Below, one piece after another: positions 3,146 to 51,646 of a stretch of 64,000 nucleotides of DNA. A program made the translations under genes and the position numbers. Positions within the stretch are counted from its first letter, which is position 1, and every line of letters starts with the position of its first letter. Where the stretch lies: NCBI GenBank assembly GCA_963664325.2, contig CAXXDQ010000007.1, positions 960,001-1,024,000 of the forward strand. The letters run 5' to 3'. The DNA is from Desulfomonilia bacterium. GTDB lineage: Bacteria; Desulfobacterota; Desulfomonilia; UBA1062. Below the pieces are notes generated by a model. It saw nothing but the letters and a program-made list of their open reading frames with translations, ran no database searches and was not told where the DNA came from.

Positions 3146-5495
3146 ATGTTCAATAAATTTTCCAAGAGCCTCACTACCAAGCTGGTGATACAGATATCCA
3201 GTACGGTCCTTATTATTTATACTATTGTATTTTCTTATAACTACATGGAATCCAGGAAACAGATTTCAGCCTATGCAGAGATGCATTGCAGGAGAGTTGC
3301 AGAAAGCACGGCAAGCCTCATCGAGTCAACCATGCATGAATCGGAAAGGTCTGCCATAGACTCGATTCCGGTTTTACTGAACAACATAGATGATTCAGTA
3401 CTTATTAAAACCCTGATTGAAATGATTATCAGGCAGAACCAGGGTCTCGTAGGTGCCATACTCATTACAGAAGAATCAGGCAAATCAGGAAAGCTTTCCG
3501 AAATACATATGCACAGATCGCCTCGCGGTATAGAACTGATAAATACAGATATTCTTAAAGAAGGTTCCTTCTACCGCAACTCATATGAAACCGTCAGAAA
3601 GTCACAGAAACCCTTTTGGAGCAACCCCATGATAGAACCTGATCTTGATTATCCCGAGATAGTTTTCACAATGCCCATGTTCAGTGAACAGGTCGGCAGG
3701 AAAGTGTTCAAAGGGGTTTTCCTTATCGAGGTCTCTCTTCTGAACATCTCTGAAATCGTATCAAACGTTAAGGTTTTCAATACCGGATACTGCTTCATCA
3801 TATCAGGTGACGGCACGTTCATAGCACATCCTTTTACTGACAGAATCGCACGCGAAACCATCTTCCAGCTTGCAAGCGAATTTCACAACCCGTCGGCTGC
3901 CGTTATAGGCACGCATATGATCAGGGGGGAGACGGGGTTTTCGGTTTTCGACAGTATCGTCCTGAAAGAAAGCAGTTTTATATATTATGTCCCCATACTC
4001 GAATATGGCTGGTCGCTGGCAGTCCTGTGTGCTCAATCCGACATGTTCAGCGGGATGAAGAAGCTTTCGAAAAGCCTTGTTATGCTTGCCCTGGCAGGGC
4101 TGCTGATACTCTTTATGTTCGTAGCGTTCATATCGGGAAGGATAACCAGGCCGCTAAGGGGTCTTGCTGCTGCAGCCTATGCAATAGGCAAAGGAGACCT
4201 TGACTACAACATACCCAGGATAAACATAAAAGATGAAGTCGGCGTGCTGACAAACGTATTTTCGGATATGTTGGAATCCCTGAAAAACCAGATAGCCATA
4301 CTCACTGAAACCACTGCCGCAAAAGAGCGTATTGAAAGAGAGCTGCAGATTGCACATGAGGTCCAGATGAGCATACTGCCGGGGCTTGACTCAATTCAGA
4401 GGTCCAGTGAATTCGATCTGTTCGCCTCCATGGTTCCGGCCAGGGAAGTCGGCGGAGACATGTATGATTTTTTCATGACCGACGAGAATTCCCTGTGGCT
4501 TATCATTGGAGACGTATCAGGGAAAGGCATCCCAGCGGCCTTTTACATGGCGCTGACAAAAACGATGCTTCACATGTCGGCTCTTTCAAATTCAACTCCC
4601 GGCGAAGTCCTGACATCGGTGAATAATGAACTCTGCAGAAACAACCCGTATTCCATGTTCGTTACAATCTTTATTGCCCGCTTGAATATAAAAACCGGAG
4701 TTATCCTGTACTCCAATGCAGGCCACAATCCTCCGGTAATCGTGCAGGAAAAAGGCGGGCTTTTATTTGTGGATGAAAGGATGGGTCCCTGCGTGCGGTT
4801 TGAAGCATGGAATAAAATACGGGACCAGGAGAACCAGGTTATTGAAGGGGAATACTCTTTTCATGTTTACAGACGGCGTAACGGAAAGTATTGATATTCA
4901 TGGAAGCCTGTTCACTGAAGAAGGGCTCAATAAAGTGCTCATGAACGCCGCTGATATGAATCCCGGGGAAATTATTTCAGGGATCATGCAAAAGATTGAG
5001 GGTTTTGCCAAAGATATGCCACAGAATGATGATATTACGATGCTGGCGGTTAAATATAACGGCATGGAATCCGAAACTTTTCATGCCAAAAACGCCCACA
5101 TCAATATTGAAAATAAACCTGATAATATTGAAAGGATCCATGCATTTATTTCCGATTTCATCAAGTCATGCGGCATCGGGGAACCCGCTGTTAATAACCT
5201 TGATCTTATCATTGAAGAGCTGTTCATCAACATATGCAGATACGCCTATTCTGACGACAAGGCTCATAATGTATATATATCTCTTTCCTTTGACGGTTCT
5301 GATATAACATTTTCTCTGGAAGATGACGGCCTTGAGTTCAATCCGCTCACCTATAACCCTCAGCCTTATTCGTGCTCTATTGATCAAACACAGGTCGGCG
5401 GACAGGGCATAAGGATTGTCAACAGCCTGTCTGAGTCGATAAGTTATCAGTACAGAAACGGGAAAAATATTATTACTGGGAAAATGAAACCCTGA
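3146..5495 (+). pseudogene. Cache-HAMP-SpoIIE(PP2C) phosphatase-HATPase fusion split by a +1 frameshift near 4787-4790 (possibly an assembly error)
   Basis: ORF 3146-4894 has TM/Cache/HAMP plus VGGDMYD, GDVSGKG, NAGH motifs; ORF 4767-5495 supplies FTDGVTE, DDIT and HATPase (EELFIN, DDG, GGQG). Removing one C from GGTCCCTGCG gives a continuous 782-aa frame. Confidence 0.85.
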
Positions 5496-45808: not shown

Positions 45809-46642
45809 ATGGACAATACAAAAAAAACGGTCTTGATTACCGGAACAGCAAGCGGCATAGGCATGGAAACCGCACTGTACTTCTTCGATAAAGGCTTCAA
45901 TGTCATCGCCACCATGCGCAATCCCGGACAGCGTAAAACCACTCTTCATGAAAAGGGCCTGCCCGACCTGGTGCATCTTGATGTTACGGACGCAGCATCC
46001 ATAAATGCGGCTGTTCAATACGCTCTGGATAAATATGGTAAAATAGACGTGCTGGTGAACAATGCCGGTTATGCGGTTTTCGGCCCGTTCGAGGCTGCTA
46101 CGAAAGAACAGGAAAAGCGCGAATTCGACACAAACCTATTCGGGCTCATTGAAGTGGTTCGAGGAATTCTACCGGTTTTCCGAAATCAAAAGACCGGGAT
46201 TATAATAAACGTGACCTCCATGGGCGGCCGCATCGGGTTTCCTCTTTACGCCCTGTATAATGCCACCAAATGGGCCGTAGAGGGGTTTACCGAGGCGCTC
46301 ATGTATGAATTGAAGCCGCTGGACATAAAAGTCAAACTGATTGAACCCGGGGTCATCAAGACCGATTTTTACGACCGCTCGCTTGACAAGACGGACTGTT
46401 CGGCCCTGACGGACGCCTACGGCGCTGTAATGAAGCGTGCGGAAAAGCTGACAGATGAAAGTTCTATAAAAAAGGGCAGCGAGCCTAAGCTGGTGGCTGA
46501 AATTATCTACCGTGCCGCTACCGATGGCAGCTCCCGGCTGCGATATCCTGCCGGAAGCGATGCAAAGCTTGTTTGGATGCTGCGCCGTATTCTTCCTGAA
46601 AGCCTGTTCTTCCGGGTGCTGGAAAAGGCAGTCCTGGATTGA
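45809..46642 (+). CDS. Short-chain dehydrogenase/reductase
   Basis: TGTASGIG, NNAG, YNATK. Confidence 0.95.
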   Translation: MDNTKKTVLITGTASGIGMETALYFFDKGFNVIATMRNPGQRKTTLHEKGLPDLVHLDVTDAASINAAVQYALDKYGKIDVLVNNAGYAVFGPFEAATKEQEKREFDTNLFGLIEVVRGILPVFRNQKTGIIINVTSMGGRIGFPLYALYNATKWAVEGFTEALMYELKPLDIKVKLIEPGVIKTDFYDRSLDKTDCSALTDAYGAVMKRAEKLTDESSIKKGSEPKLVAEIIYRAATDGSSRLRYPAGSDAKLVWMLRRILPESLFFRVLEKAVLD

Positions 46643-46753
46643 GCATGCAGTACTGACCGGCCAGCAGCATAATAAAAAGAACTGGAACAACAGACCTTAC
46701 ACCTTGATGTTTCATACATTAAACATTCAAATGGCCGGGCGGTTAATGCTTTA

Positions 46754-47197
46754 TCAAGATATGAATCCCCTCAGGTTTCTTTCAAGCTCTTCCTTGGGCC
46801 GGGCGCCAACAAGGCTTTTAACCACTTCTCCGTTTTTGAATACCAGCAGTGCGGGAATCCCCTGAATGGAATATTTTGAAGGAATGATGCGGTTTTCATC
46901 GACGTTCATCTTTGCAAATTTGATCTTTCCTGCATATTGAGCTGAAAGTTCATCTATAATCGGGCTCATCATCTTGCAGGGGGCGCACCATGATGCCCAG
47001 AAGTCTACCACTACAGCGCCGGGAAAGCCCAGAACCTCTTCGGAAAATGTTGAATCGGTAACTGTCACCGGTTTTTTTAATGCGGGTTTATCAAGAGGTT
47101 CATGGCATTTCCCGCATTTTGCACCAGACCTTGATTTTTCAGAAGGTACCCTGTTTTTGGTCCCGCATTGCTGGCACTGGTATATTTTATAATTCAT
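46754..47197 (-). CDS. trxC: Thioredoxin 2-type protein with N-terminal zinc finger
   Basis: CQQC..NR..CGKC zinc finger plus DFWASWCAPC. Confidence 0.88.
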   Translation of the reverse strand: MNYKIYQCQQCGTKNRVPSEKSRSGAKCGKCHEPLDKPALKKPVTVTDSTFSEEVLGFPGAVVVDFWASWCAPCKMMSPIIDELSAQYAGKIKFAKMNVDENRIIPSKYSIQGIPALLVFKNGEVVKSLVGARPKEELERNLRGFIS

Positions 47198-47355
47198 CAA
47201 GACTTCTCCTTTCACTATATTACGGTCAAACAATTATATAGGGGGTCGATTATGCTTTTTCCAGTAGGTGGCAATAAATATGAATGGGCCGGCAGGGAAA
47301 AGGCACAGGCCTTTTCCTTTATCTGATTTCCGCCTGCAGCAATTTTATTTGGATT

Positions 47356-48111
47356 TTATCTTTTGCGCCTCTCGTCAAAAAGCGCCCCCTGAATTATCGG
47401 CGTTATATACATGCCCTGATCCAGATTGAAATATGTACCCCTGACTCCCCTGTTTTCCCTTCTGAATTTTCTTGCATGTTCTTCCGACCGGAAGAATACC
47501 GAGCGTCTTCAGAACGAGTTTATGATACTGGGTTCATTCAACTTGTCAAAATCGACTATGGGCGCAAATGCGACCGGTGCGGCATCATTTGAAATAACCC
47601 TGTATCTCATTGAGCTTTCGATCTCGATAACAAGAGGTTCTTTACAGCATGCGCATTCGGTATCAACCGTTACCTTAAGTCCGGTGTTTTTCAAAAGCCC
47701 TTGCACGAAGGGCGCCGCAAGCGCGTCAACCGCTCAGGCGGCATAAATGTGCTCTCCCGTGCTGAAAGTAAGCCTGTGAGGGGTCTTCTCGACGGTGACC
47801 GGATAGGCCCATGTAACCTCCCCGTCAGGATTCCTGTAGAGAAAGGTCATGTTTTTTTCAAGCTCGTCAAGTATTTCAATAACCCGGCCGGTTTCGATCT
47901 GCAGGGCCTGCGAGATATGAACGGGCGTTAACGGAACACCTTTAGCAGCGATCTCGGTTACAACAAAATCCCTCACTTTATGGTGGTCATCAGTCATGAA
48001 GGCAAGCCTTGCGGCATTAAGCTTTGACATGTCGCCGATCTGAGCCTTCCATGCAAAGCCGGGTATTCTTAAAAGATATTTCCAAACACCGAGAAGAAGG
48101 GCGTCTTTCAT
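47356..48111 (-). CDS. MerB (organomercurial lyase)-like selenoprotein, 251 aa, two predicted Sec residues (U126, U201)
   Basis: One frame from ATG 48111 (GGAGG RBS) to TAA 47356 with in-frame TGA at 47734-47736 (YAA-U-AVD) and 47509-47511 (NSF-U-RRSVFF), matching MerB YAW-C-ALD and QSF-C-CHVHFF; SECIS-like hairpin after each. Confidence 0.88.
47479..47496 (-). promoter_or_regulatory. SECIS-like hairpin for the second UGA
   Basis: UUCUUCC-GGUC-GGAAGAA at +13 to +30 after the UGA. Confidence 0.8.
47697..47713 (-). promoter_or_regulatory. SECIS-like hairpin for the first UGA
   Basis: GCCCUU-CGUGC-AAGGGC at +21 to +37 after the UGA, with GU in the loop. Confidence 0.6.
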
Positions 48112-48328
48112 GCCAAACCTCCATATTTATTTTATAATTAACCCTATTTGGAAAAAAGAAAAGTTATTTCATAACAATAATAAAAAAACATGCCGTATCT
48201 CATGATTCAACATGCTGACGATATTTGACGGTCTGAGTTCTCCATCGGCTGAGCATACGTTGTACCGTCATATGCACATTGACAAAACCTTATTCGGCTT
48301 TATTATCAGAAACACGAGGTGGTGAACG

Positions 48329-48829
48329 ATGTACAAAAAATTCATGGAACTTATTGAGATCAATTCCGAGGATCTCGCCAGAAACATATTGCGTGAAATA
48401 AGCGACATAAAGGAATTCCGGCAATACCGGGGGATACCGGAAGACGTCCTGCTGGAGCGTATTTACCAGGTAATGCGAAACGTGCATGAACGGCTTGGGA
48501 ACTGGCTCGATAAAAACAAGTCGAAGAACACATTGTTTGCCTATTATTCCGATCTGGGCGCGCAGCGGATGCGTGAGGGCATACCTCTTGATGAGGTTAT
48601 CAAGCTTTATCTGCTTATCAAGCGGGAGATATGGCATATGTTCAGAGAGCAGCTGACGGTGAACGACGAATCCGAACTCAAACGGCTCATGGAAATCGAT
48701 TTTTACGTGAACCTGTTCTTTGACAGGATTGTCACCTCCATAATCTCCGGATACCAGGCCGAACTGGGTAAGATTTGGGAAAAAACAGGTCTTGATAACC
48801 CGCTTGCAACAGAGATCTTCAATAAATAG
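48329..48829 (+). CDS. Hypothetical helical protein (RsbRD N-terminal-like)
   Basis: GAGGTG RBS; Y..LG..R..EGIPL.EV pattern. Confidence 0.7.
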   Translation: MYKKFMELIEINSEDLARNILREISDIKEFRQYRGIPEDVLLERIYQVMRNVHERLGNWLDKNKSKNTLFAYYSDLGAQRMREGIPLDEVIKLYLLIKREIWHMFREQLTVNDESELKRLMEIDFYVNLFFDRIVTSIISGYQAELGKIWEKTGLDNPLATEIFNK

Positions 48830-49055
48830 CAGGAAAAGAACAGGCCAGAGCATGGCAATAGTGCTTAATCTTATTTTCTAATATGTCTTCCCTCGCTTTG
48901 CTGCTGTGCCGAAATGCACCTTGACTCCACGGCATCATCCCGGACTCAGAGAATTCCCGAGTATCATCATGCAAAAAATGCACTTCTGGCTATGTTAAAA
49001 GACAATGCCGGCAGCAGAACGTCAAACCATTTTGAAATAATCTCTTTTTGAGCAT

Positions 49056-50198
49056 TTAAGATATCCTTGAGAAATCCCGGCCGCGTTCCCTGAGCATACG
49101 GCTTCCTGCTTCGGTCCTGGTTTCCGGAATATCTTCGCCTGTCTCATTTCTTCTTTGAAGTTTGCGGGACTGCATCGGGCATTTGTGGGCGCATACACCG
49201 CAGCCTATGCACTTTTCCCGGTCATATTCAAAGACCTTTCCGGCATCCTGTATTTTACATATTGACCCGTTTGAAGGTGGAATCTTTTTGATTTTTACAG
49301 CTTCGACCGGGCATCGTTTTTCACACAGCCCGCATAGTTTGCACGTTTCGGCATTATGCACAACCACATAGTTCGAGCGCTGGTGTCCGCGTAAGATCGA
49401 CGGCAACACTGCAGCCCGTTCAAGGAAAAGACAGCAGCATGAGCAGCAGTTGCAGATTGTGTCAATCTTCGTCTTATAGTTGCTGATGCCGTGAACCAGA
49501 CCTGCATCCGCAGCGTCCTTCAATATTTCAAGCGTCTGCTGCTTTGATATCTCCTTACCCATGCCGTATTTGAGCATATACCTTCCGAGACTGCCGAAAT
49601 GCAGGCAGTTCATGGTAACGTGACTGCATTTCTCAAAGTCCGGGTCAAGATTGTGCCTGTGTCTGCAATCGCAGGTTGAAACTATGAAAAAGTCTTCTTT
49701 GTCGATGAATGCGAGTATATCCTCATAGGGCAGTATCTGTTTTGTATCTTTGATTGTTTCCGCAATCGGGATGGCGCGCAGTCCTTTTGTTGGATGTTTC
49801 ATCATTTCATGCGACATATGGTTGATGTAATACCGATGGGCCAGCGATGCATACTCCCTGTTCAACTCATCATTGATTCCCACCCATCCCGGTACCTGGA
49901 AGTTCGCAAAGTTGTTGTCATTAAGGAAATATCCTGGCCCGGACTTTCCCTGAGCCTCGAAAATAAAACCTTTTTTTATCAGCGGTTCCATCTTCGCTAT
50001 CAATTCGTCTGCAGACATATGGAATTTTTCCTTAAGCTGCTCCATCGTATGCGGCATGAAAGGAAAGGCCGAGAGAAAGGCGGCTTCGTCCGGAGTACAC
50101 CTCAATTTGAGCAGCCGCGTGAAATCTTCAGGGGCGGGCACATCGTAAATCCACGTTTTATATCTCTCAATCAGCGAATCATATGGTCTGTTTTCCAT
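49056..50198 (-). CDS. 4Fe-4S dicluster protein
   Basis: CDCRH, ICNCCSCCC, CKLCGLCEKRCP, CIGCGVCAHKCP. Confidence 0.9.
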   Translation of the reverse strand: MENRPYDSLIERYKTWIYDVPAPEDFTRLLKLRCTPDEAAFLSAFPFMPHTMEQLKEKFHMSADELIAKMEPLIKKGFIFEAQGKSGPGYFLNDNNFANFQVPGWVGINDELNREYASLAHRYYINHMSHEMMKHPTKGLRAIPIAETIKDTKQILPYEDILAFIDKEDFFIVSTCDCRHRHNLDPDFEKCSHVTMNCLHFGSLGRYMLKYGMGKEISKQQTLEILKDAADAGLVHGISNYKTKIDTICNCCSCCCLFLERAAVLPSILRGHQRSNYVVVHNAETCKLCGLCEKRCPVEAVKIKKIPPSNGSICKIQDAGKVFEYDREKCIGCGVCAHKCPMQSRKLQRRNETGEDIPETRTEAGSRMLRERGRDFSRIS

Positions 50199-50218
50199 TT
50201 TTCCCCCTTTATACAGGG

Positions 50219-50989
50219 CTACCCCAGGCATGCGGGACAAACGCCTATGCATTTGAAGCAGTGGTATTCGAAGCCTATGAAATTCGCCTGATAAAGGCTC
50301 AGGATAGCCGGGTCTTTTAAAAGCGCCTTTTTACCCTCAAGGTCCGCCTTGATGAAATTCCTCAAATAGCCTATCAGTCCTCCGATTCCGTTGGGCTGAG
50401 AGACCTTCAGACACTTGAACATGTCGGTTTTGCCCTCCTCGTCAAGGGCCCGGCCTGGGCAAGATTCTACGCACAGGCCGCAACCATTGCACAGGTCATC
50501 CGTTACGCGCTCATCCGATTCAAGCGGCAGAGAGGTAAGTACGGCGGTAAATATAATGCGGCTGCCGAACCTGGGATTGATGACCAGATTGTGCCTTCCG
50601 AAAACTCCCAGCCCGGCTGCGACGGCCGCGTGCCTCAGCGAGATGTCGCCCGTAAGCCCCATGACCGGCGGCTTCATATCAAGTGGATATGACGGAGCAA
50701 CAGGAGCCGCCTTTGTCCTGAAAGCATCTTCAACAAAGCGCGAGATGAGATAGCTGTTTTTTCTCATCAAATCCATCATGCCCAGGCGCGCAGCCATGCT
50801 TGTTCGGTTGTTCGGGCTTTCGATGGCCCCGTCAATCTCCCTGTAGCCGGTCACGATAATCGATCTGACGCCGGGTAAAATCGCATCCGGCGCCATCGCC
50901 CCTTTCAGCTCATAATCGCCGACCGAGGCAAACCCCACGACATCGGCCCCGAGACCCAGGCAGAAACTGCTGATTTTTTCTTTCTCCAT
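50219..50989 (-). CDS. Epoxyqueuosine reductase (QueG)/reductive dehalogenase-like Fe-S protein
   Basis: LGADVVGFA, SLRHAAVAAGLG, NPRFGSR, CNGCGLCVESCP, CFKCIGVCP. Confidence 0.82.
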   Translation of the reverse strand: MEKEKISSFCLGLGADVVGFASVGDYELKGAMAPDAILPGVRSIIVTGYREIDGAIESPNNRTSMAARLGMMDLMRKNSYLISRFVEDAFRTKAAPVAPSYPLDMKPPVMGLTGDISLRHAAVAAGLGVFGRHNLVINPRFGSRIIFTAVLTSLPLESDERVTDDLCNGCGLCVESCPGRALDEEGKTDMFKCLKVSQPNGIGGLIGYLRNFIKADLEGKKALLKDPAILSLYQANFIGFEYHCFKCIGVCPACLG

Positions 50990-51052: not shown

Positions 51053-51646
51053 TTATTCCCTCAGTTCGTCTATAATTTTTGATTTAAGAATGGATACGTT
51101 TCTATCAAGATGAGACCTGTCACCCGTGACTTTCGAGAGCATGATGCCGCCTTCGATAAGAGAGACGAAAAAGGATGCAAAAATTTCGGGATCAACGCCT
51201 TTTCTGATCTCGCCATTTTTGACCCCCCTTTTCATGATATTTTTTATAGAGCCGGTCCAATTATCCAGCGACTTTACCACGACGTCCCGTAACGGAAGAT
51301 CGCTGTTGTCAGAGTCGACAGCGGCATTCAGGATAGGACATCCGCCGGACTGCGAAAGCCTGTCAAAGGCATTGGAATAGTATTCGGCCATGGCGATGAG
51401 CTTATCGCATGAATCGGATTTCTGAGAGACTTTTACAGCTATTTCTTCGGCAATCCTTCTGATGTTGTATTTAAGTGCCGCAACAGCTATGTCGTCCTTG
51501 TTCCTGAAATTGCCGTACAGGGCTCCTTTGGTAAGTCCGACTGCCTCGGTCAGGTCAGACAGGGAGGTCCCTTCATAGCCATGCTTGTTGAAAAGCGGAG
51601 CCACTTTTTCTATTATTATCCTTTTCGTTTCTTCGGACTTTTTCAT
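51053..51646 (-). CDS. TetR/AcrR family regulator
   Basis: LFNKHGYEGTSLSDLTEAVGLTKGALYGNF HTH; GGCP motif. Confidence 0.94.
   Translation of the reverse strand: MKKSEETKRIIIEKVAPLFNKHGYEGTSLSDLTEAVGLTKGALYGNFRNKDDIAVAALKYNIRRIAEEIAVKVSQKSDSCDKLIAMAEYYSNAFDRLSQSGGCPILNAAVDSDNSDLPLRDVVVKSLDNWTGSIKNIMKRGVKNGEIRKGVDPEIFASFFVSLIEGGIMLSKVTGDRSHLDRNVSILKSKIIDELRE

Follow-up and report, generated by a model that had tools for sequence, protein, structure and literature searches.

In MerB, one active-site thiolate binds R-Hg+, a second coordinates the metal and Asp99 protonates the leaving carbon, after which Hg(II) stays on Cys96, Cys159 and Asp99 before MerA or thiols take it over. At neutral pH selenols are ionised, and their affinity for mercury is much higher than that of thiols. 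A MerB-like selenoprotein, SaoL ("selenocysteine-assisted organometallic lyase," model NF040728), has been described with one selenocysteine (Sec) in a C-U pair at the position of Cys159 and a cysteine at that of Cys96 (Haft & Gwadz, bioRxiv 10.1101/2022.07.06.499078). Its SAO locus was reported to comprise nine genes, including an ABC transporter (SaoA/P/B), SaoX, SaoE, SaoC, SaoT, and SaoD, and the authors argue for another organometal as the SaoL substrate (bioRxiv 10.1101/2022.07.06.499078). Here we describe a gene on the minus strand of a 64,000-nucleotide stretch from a Desulfomonilia bacterium (GenBank assembly GCA_963664325.2, contig CAXXDQ010000007.1, forward-strand positions 960,001 to 1,024,000; hereafter the window, whose numbering is used throughout). 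It encodes a MerB-like protein with UGA codons at both catalytic cysteine positions.

In the parts of two prokaryotic selenoprotein catalogues available to us SaoL is the only MerB-like entry, with one Sec in the 2026 catalogue (PMC9312934, PMC13188914). No account of a two-Sec MerB-like protein was found in the literature, where supplementary tables may list more. MerB-like selenoproteins are therefore already known from SaoL, and it is the two-Sec form that appears to be new. We read the gene as encoding a MerB-fold selenoenzyme with Sec at both UGA codons and, by analogy with MerB, the activity of an organometal C-metal lyase, and we give this reading as a whole a probability of about 0.8.

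One Reading Frame with Two Internal UGA Codons

Translation of window positions 47356-48111 on the minus strand gives a single frame of 251 codons whose only internal stops are TGA126 and TGA201 (Table 1). Under translation table 11 the gene falls into open reading frames (ORFs) at 47734-48111 (125 amino acids) and 47509-47706 (65 amino acids), and the final 50 codons (47359-47508) are left unlisted. An earlier interpretation of the letters, below called the sequence-only reading, had joined these pieces into one 251-residue frame with two TGAs and a terminal TAA; the translation agrees with it, and all of the site contexts and the AYPVT and ECACC motifs that it quoted are present. The two Sec sites lie in the contexts HIYAA-U-AVDALAAP (site 1) and IINSF-U-RRSVFFRSEEHA (site 2), WAYPVT occupies residues 101-106, and ECACC residues 152-156.

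The double-TGA frame is more than a product of chance, since all 33 genomic copies compared have TGA both at codon 126 and in the alignment column of codon 201. This set consists of the window copy, eight copies from related genomes, four Anaerolineae and Chloroflexia records, and, from 401 sampled genomes of the window's phylum, 20 of 22 further strong hits (G093 and G280 were left out). It covers that phylum and Chloroflexota, at 43-75% identity to the window protein. Asp129 and Cys153 are invariant (33/33), and the U-x-x-D spacing is likewise kept. The protein is strongly conserved downstream of each TGA, and the homologues contain no further stops or frameshifts. The sequence-only reading had expected conservation to run past the first TGA and homologues to carry Cys or TGA at both sites. 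Conservation in fact continues beyond both TGAs, TGA is found in every genomic copy, and Cys occurs among database relatives. Window positions 47356-48111 are thus a real, intact gene.

Of 41 related genomes, nine, among them that of the window, have the gene, each time with two TGAs. Strong full-length matches (E 1e-84 or better) were detected in 26 of the 401 genomes of the phylum sample, all with two TGAs and one with three, and in the Chloroflexota sample the gene occurs in two of 301 genomes, in the two-TGA form in both.

The genome itself encodes SelA (441 bits), the SelB wing domain (67.9 bits), SelD (379.7 bits), and a tRNA-Sec gene; the Sec machinery that the sequence-only reading presupposed (selA, selB, selD, tRNA-Sec) is therefore all found. 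The selD gene (L004, contig C3, 477478-478392) has its own in-frame TGA in the context GSGUACK, and a GC-rich hairpin begins about 12 nt downstream of it, SelD being itself a selenoprotein here. TGA is the commonest terminator of long ORFs in the genome (894 of 2,065), above TAA or TAG, and as an ordinary stop it leaves no room for a change of the genetic code. Both TGAs are very probably selenocysteine codons, and we are highly confident that the product is a genuine two-Sec protein.

Hairpins Downstream of the UGA Codons

SelB binds hairpins that lie shortly 3' of the UGA and show a G-U in the apical loop. A hairpin resembling a selenocysteine insertion sequence (SECIS) was predicted after each of the two UGA codons, and both loops (CGUGC and GGUC) carry a G-U. 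The evidence for the two structures is of different kinds. Hairpin 1 retains its six core pairs in 30-33 of the 33 sequences; it hardly varies and so offers evidence of conservation and none of covariation. A shuffle test of hairpin 1 across the 33 sequences was not significant.

Synonymous codon choice was compared over the 66 codon columns of the 33-sequence alignment that have a conserved, degenerate amino acid. Low entropy (<0.5 bit) was observed in nine of ten hairpin columns versus one of 56 columns outside, namely that of Asp129. In hairpin 1 the values for codons 134-138 are 0.20, 0, 0, 0.44, and 0 bit, and in hairpin 2 those for codons 206, 207, 210, and 211 are 0, 0, 0, and 0.45 bit, compared with about 1-2 bits elsewhere. 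The tenth hairpin column, Ser209, does vary (TCA in 20 sequences, TCG in 13), and it pairs with the first base of codon 208, which is TGG (Trp) or CGG (Arg). The loop-closing pair of hairpin 2 is accordingly U-A in 20/33 sequences and C-G in 13/33, and is unpaired in none. Four changes between the two states are needed on the gene tree, at least three of them forced by well-supported branches. Each time, the replacement at codon 208 is matched by a synonymous change at Ser209, and the stem is therefore kept. Taken together, the covariation and the frozen synonymous sites support selection at the RNA level on both predicted hairpins.

Predicted MerB Fold and Alignment to the Catalytic Triad

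For comparison with the Pfam and NCBIfam models the protein was scored with C in place of U. It matches the Pfam MerB family PF03243 with 55.3 bits over residues 106-234 (cut-off 27), and in a six-frame search of the 4.3-Mb genome the gene is the sole match to this family (38.6 bits). No model of NCBIfam release 20.0 is passed: the canonical MerB models NF009710 and NF033555 give 53.7 versus 193 bits and 46.9 versus 200 bits, respectively, and the SaoL model NF040728 gives 50.1 versus 140 bits. The sequence-only reading had called the protein MerB-like and distinct from SaoL, naming these profiles as the means to check it; the PF03243 score and the fold are in agreement with the first part, and the missed SaoL cut-off with the second.

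The AlphaFold2 model, built from a 29-row alignment, has a mean predicted local distance difference test score of 90.8 and a predicted template-modelling (TM) score of 0.89. The best 11 Foldseek matches in the PDB are all MerB or MerB2 (E 3e-12 to 4e-7, identity 17-20%), with target-normalised TM scores of 0.74-0.80 for ten crystal chains and 0.60 for the solution structure 1S6L. Matches from rank 12 onward have E values of 0.02 or worse and are mostly MarR-type winged helices aligned to the N-terminal part (E 0.05-0.3). The protein carries an extra stretch at its N-terminus, since the alignment with MerB starts at profile position 56 versus MerB residue 32; in the model this stretch forms a beta-hairpin and a long helix.

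Profile alignment to the R831b MerB places site 1 on Cys96, Asp129 on Asp99, Cys153 on Cys117, and site 2 on Cys159, and a pairwise alignment with MerB2 is concordant for both Sec sites. The assignment of U126, D129, and U201 to the Cys96/Asp99/Cys159 triad, proposed earlier from remembered MerB motifs, was confirmed by these alignments, and the motifs themselves (YAWCALD and SFCCHVHFFAS) occur in the aligned PDB MerB sequence. The protein belongs to the MerB family, yet it is neither a canonical MerB nor SaoL.

Comparison with Known Relatives

Like SaoL, as far as that family is characterised in the accessible part of its description, the protein is a PF03243 selenoprotein of anaerobes with Sec at the Cys159 equivalent, is encoded outside mer operons, and is represented in databases by entries truncated at UGA. 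It differs from SaoL in having Sec at both sites, in the F-U-R pattern at site 2, where Phe precedes U201, and in its additional N-terminal stretch. It also lacks the surrounding SAO locus of nine genes and its ABC transporter, judging by the families of the neighbouring genes (Sao models were not run). With MerB R831b (PDB 3F0O, 3F0P, 1S6L) and MerB2 (5C17) it shares the fold, with the positions of Cys96, Asp99, Cys159, and Cys117 in register, whereas the identity is 17-20%, both Cys are replaced by Sec, and site 2 is not followed by a second Cys. In contrast to the MerB of mer operons it is not accompanied by merA or merT, and its NCBIfam scores lie far below the cut-offs.

Relatives in the same clade, with Cys/Sec (for example P0004, P0009, P0013) or Ser/Cys (for example P0002, P0003) at sites 1 and 2, are 36-43% identical over the whole length and share with the two-Sec protein the N-terminal extension and the motifs WAYPVT, TPHR, and SVFFWSEEHA. 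They differ from it in having either Cys at site 1, with the database entry stopping at residue 200, or Ser at site 1 and Cys at site 2.

The family is widely represented in databases, mostly by fragments. A HMMER scan of 1.84 billion representative proteins produced 532 matches at E <=0.001. Among the best 150 of these, 103 stop exactly at residue 125, just before site 1, and another 22 stop before that residue. In seven, site 1 is Cys and the entry runs to exactly residue 200, implying a Sec confined to site 2; two more with Cys at site 1 end short of residue 200. The rest of the best 150 comprise three Ser/Cys entries, one Cys/Cys, one W/W, seven degenerate entries (Gly, Glu, or Ser at site 1), and four C-terminal fragments that start past site 1; Cys at site 2 is seen in P0002, P0003, and P0149. 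The fragments are named "hypothetical protein," and the 125-residue fragment of the window's own gene is among them, so that the fragmentary annotation foreseen in the sequence-only reading is indeed what databases hold, mostly as entries of 125 amino acids. Against PF03243 the 125- and 65-residue table-11 pieces give no match and the 50-residue piece gives 12.3 bits (cut-off 27). Since all pieces miss the cut-off, the family is invisible to PF03243 screens of predicted proteomes.

Gene Tree and Distant Relatives

In the gene tree the window's genus belongs to a set of 14 rows, well supported and with Chloroflexota among them, and lies apart from relatives of its own class; the window protein is 54% identical to members of this set versus 47% to the same-class relatives. 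This grouping with Chloroflexota and other families suggests that the gene may have been transferred horizontally, the deeper branches of the tree being weak.

One Chloroflexia record (L022) contains two divergently placed copies of the gene (842-1914 and 3444-4194). Frameshifts affect the second copy and the C-terminal end of the first, through assembly error or decay.

Both catalytic columns are likewise TGA in more distant MerB-like genes of G291, G026, and G357 (L043, L044, and L045, respectively) and of G148 (L046), and G291 and G026 hold both this type and the two-Sec family described here. One distant clade has the patterns ...WF[GA]Q-U-[AG]FE... and ...A-U-STMN[FL]FRSEEH, with Glu replacing the Asp of the two-Sec family, and in the G148 gene Gly stands three residues past the first Sec. 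A SaoL-type pattern, C...D / C-U, was seen in G260 (L048).

Genomic Neighbourhood, mer Genes, and hgcA

Table 1. Features of the two-Sec merB-like gene and its flanks (window coordinates)
Feature	Position	Strand	Details or basis
Complete coding sequence, two-Sec MerB-like protein, 251 aa	47356..48111	-	ATG 48111-48109, TAA 47358-47356
Ribosome-binding site GGAGG, ATG 6 nt further on	48118..48122	-	Direct sequence reading
UGA codon 126, very probably read as Sec; aligns to MerB Cys96	47734..47736	-	Alignment, homologues
Asp129 codon GAC; aligns to MerB Asp99 (proton donor)	47725..47727	-	Profile alignment to PDB MerB
SECIS-like hairpin 1, stem GCCCUU/AAGGGC, loop CGUGC, 20 nt past UGA126	47697..47713	-	Folding
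Cys153 codon; aligns to MerB Cys117	47653..47655	-	Profile alignment
UGA codon 201, very probably read as Sec; aligns to MerB Cys159	47509..47511	-	Alignment, homologues
SECIS-like hairpin 2, stem UUCUUCC/GGAAGAA, loop GGUC, 12 nt past UGA201	47479..47496	-	Folding
Thioredoxin-2-type gene, 122 nt downstream	46754..47233	-	Pfam Thioredoxin and Zn_ribbon_Thio2, NCBIfam thioredoxin
Upstream ORF without Pfam or NCBIfam family	48290..48853	-	Family scans
Upstream ORF without Pfam or NCBIfam family	48329..48829	+	Family scans

The nine neighbouring ORFs encode a thioredoxin, an SDR, a nitroreductase, a PIG-L, two Fer4, a TetR, and an ApbA family protein, and one protein without a family. Conservation of the thioredoxin-2 gene as a partner was considered and rejected: searches with ten neighbourhood proteins (tblastn) did not find it beside the gene in 14 other loci, and no thioredoxin cluster was formed among 300 neighbour ORFs from the 33 loci. 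Its product may still have a role in this genome. The only recurrent direct neighbour is a MarR-family gene of about 149 amino acids, located immediately upstream on the same strand in 8/33 loci. A Fer4 protein like that at window 49056-50252 (398 amino acids) lies within 5 kb in four loci, three of them other than the window, and the other neighbours scanned were a FUSC transporter, a PEMT/ICMT-like protein, and an alpha/beta hydrolase.

Upstream of the gene in the window, two 4Fe-4S proteins stand behind a TetR regulator (49056-50989 and 51053-51646, both on the minus strand), and one 4Fe-4S protein has a QueG match (58.9 bits) and a reductive-dehalogenase-like one (42.3 bits), each weak and short of its cut-off. 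The 122-nt gap before the thioredoxin gene contains a palindromic hairpin of 11 pairs (window 47294-47319), with a T-run on the plus strand only. In a scan for promoters and terminators the sites were no more numerous than in shuffles.

The sequence-only reading had placed the gene outside any mer operon. This is in agreement with our data: none of the nine neighbouring ORFs contains a mer domain, MerA remains below its cut-off in the genome, and MerT has no match there (merR and merP were not searched with models).

The genome also encodes HgcA (403.8 bits, cut-off 275; contig C6, 130316-131293), on a different contig from the MerB-like gene, and the organism is therefore a putative mercury methylator. 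In the phylum sample hgcA is above cut-off in 119 of 401 genomes. It occurs together with the two-Sec gene in 14 of the 26 carriers, the window's genome included, on separate contigs in 14/14; in a fifteenth carrier (G328) hgcA is split across two contig ends. The frequency in carriers (14/26) versus non-carriers (105/375) corresponds to an odds ratio of 3 (Fisher p 0.008, uncorrected for kinship). We do not rely on this enrichment: related genomes are not independent observations, and the families in which one gene is frequent are also those in which the other is. The two genes co-occur, and no association is claimed.

Proposed Function and Alternative Explanations

In the proposed mechanism, SelB and Sec-tRNA(Sec) would decode both UGA codons, each steered by its own hairpin downstream within the coding sequence, and the product would combine a winged-helix-like N-terminal part with a MerB catalytic core. 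Sec126, Asp129, and Sec201 would take the places of Cys96, Asp99, and Cys159 of MerB. By analogy with MerB, an organometal cation, for which methyl- or another organomercury is the first candidate, would be held between the two selenolates, and Asp129 would protonate the carbon ligand, so that the hydrocarbon is released and the metal is left on the Se/Se/Asp site. The enzyme would operate without a mer operon; at other loci its gene often follows the small MarR-type regulator. Sec insertion, the chemistry, the substrate, and the release of the metal product are the parts of this reading that we infer.

These parts differ in strength. From the analogy with MerB, the protein is rather probably a carbon-metal lyase of some kind. 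Methylmercury is a tentative candidate for its physiological substrate on the same analogy, and the substrate may equally be another organometal instead of organomercury. The tight binding of mercury by selenols would suit an enzyme that captures traces of organomercury in anoxic settings rich in sulfide and thiols.

Several observations weigh against the proposed function or the decoding that it requires. Folding of the single sequence after the TGAs is no better than that of shuffles (z +1.04 to -1.46), and a search of Rfam over window positions 46500-48600 revealed no matching family, only two matches at chance level (E 3.5 and 7). Since neither gives support, the case for the hairpins is comparative. 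No conserved operon was found: the neighbours vary among the 33 loci and provide no pointer to the substrate. The best MerA match in the genome has 346.5 bits versus a cut-off of 454, so none passes. Product release is unexplained, because two selenolates would hold Hg(II) very tightly and no MerA passes. Finally, site 1 is Ser, Gly, or Glu in some database relatives. In MerB such a residue there would abolish catalysis, and a part of the wider clade may therefore only bind.

The last point leads to an alternative in which the two-Sec protein is not a lyase but binds a soft metal, such as Hg(II) or methylmercury, with very high affinity, as a chaperone, a sensor, or simply a binder. The two selenolates would keep the metal between them or pass it on, and the carbon-metal bond would stay uncleaved. 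In favour of this alternative are the retention of the fold by the Ser, Gly, and Glu relatives, the sub-threshold MerA of the genome, and the winged-helix-like N-terminal part, with its weak Foldseek matches to MarR-type proteins (E 0.05-0.3). The preservation of Asp129 in 33/33 copies, together with the U-x-x-D spacing, argues in the opposite direction, since a mere binder would not need Asp129, and we consider this alternative improbable.

It is considerably less probable that the two selenols form a redox pair (selenol/diselenide), recycled by thioredoxin and acting on a non-metal substrate. Such a role is brought to mind by the thioredoxin-2 gene on the same strand 122 nt downstream, and bacterial selenoproteins are mostly redox enzymes, according to the accessible part of one of the catalogues (PMC9312934). 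However, thioredoxin is not beside the gene in the other loci examined, and the entire fold and the triad are MerB's own.

Two further explanations would dispense with Sec altogether, and we attach a negligible probability to both. A changed code or near-cognate readthrough, with TGA read as Trp, Cys, or Gly, could be taken from database entries with W at both sites (P0007 and P0155, and two 251-residue members of one cluster), but these are most simply translations under a TGA=Trp table; TGA is the commonest long-ORF stop in the genome, many of the homologues use it as their own terminator, the genome has the complete Sec machinery, and both sites correspond to catalytic Cys in the alignment. 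A dead gene, or three small ORFs with TGAs as true stops, would match the 125-residue "hypothetical protein" of gene callers and databases, and is contradicted by the retention of both TGAs in 33/33 copies down to 43% identity without other stops or frameshifts, by the strong protein conservation past them, and by the frozen synonymous sites in the hairpins.

Implications for Methylmercury Turnover and Selenium Biology

Demethylation counts as much as methylation for the net amount of methylmercury in sediments, paddies, and wetlands, and no enzyme has been established for its anaerobic, mer-independent form. The mechanism of demethylation in the methylator Geobacter bemidjiensis is described, in the part of a review available to us, as not fully understood (PMC10114901). 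One published study picked MerB from predicted proteomes via PF03243.

It is somewhat unlikely, though worth spelling out, that the two-Sec family is the mer-operon-independent methylmercury demethylase long sought for anoxic habitats. If that were true, the double Sec would let the enzyme take picomolar methylmercury off sulfide and thiol ligands. The methylators that carry hgcA (14/26 of the carriers sampled) would then both make and break methylmercury, and surveys of merB in predicted proteomes would have missed much of the demethylation potential.

For selenium biology, the two-Sec MerB-like proteins would constitute a large family in which two metal-binding positions of a single active site are as a rule filled by Sec and not by Cys. 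The family would thus provide a direct handle on what Sec adds to carbon-metal chemistry.

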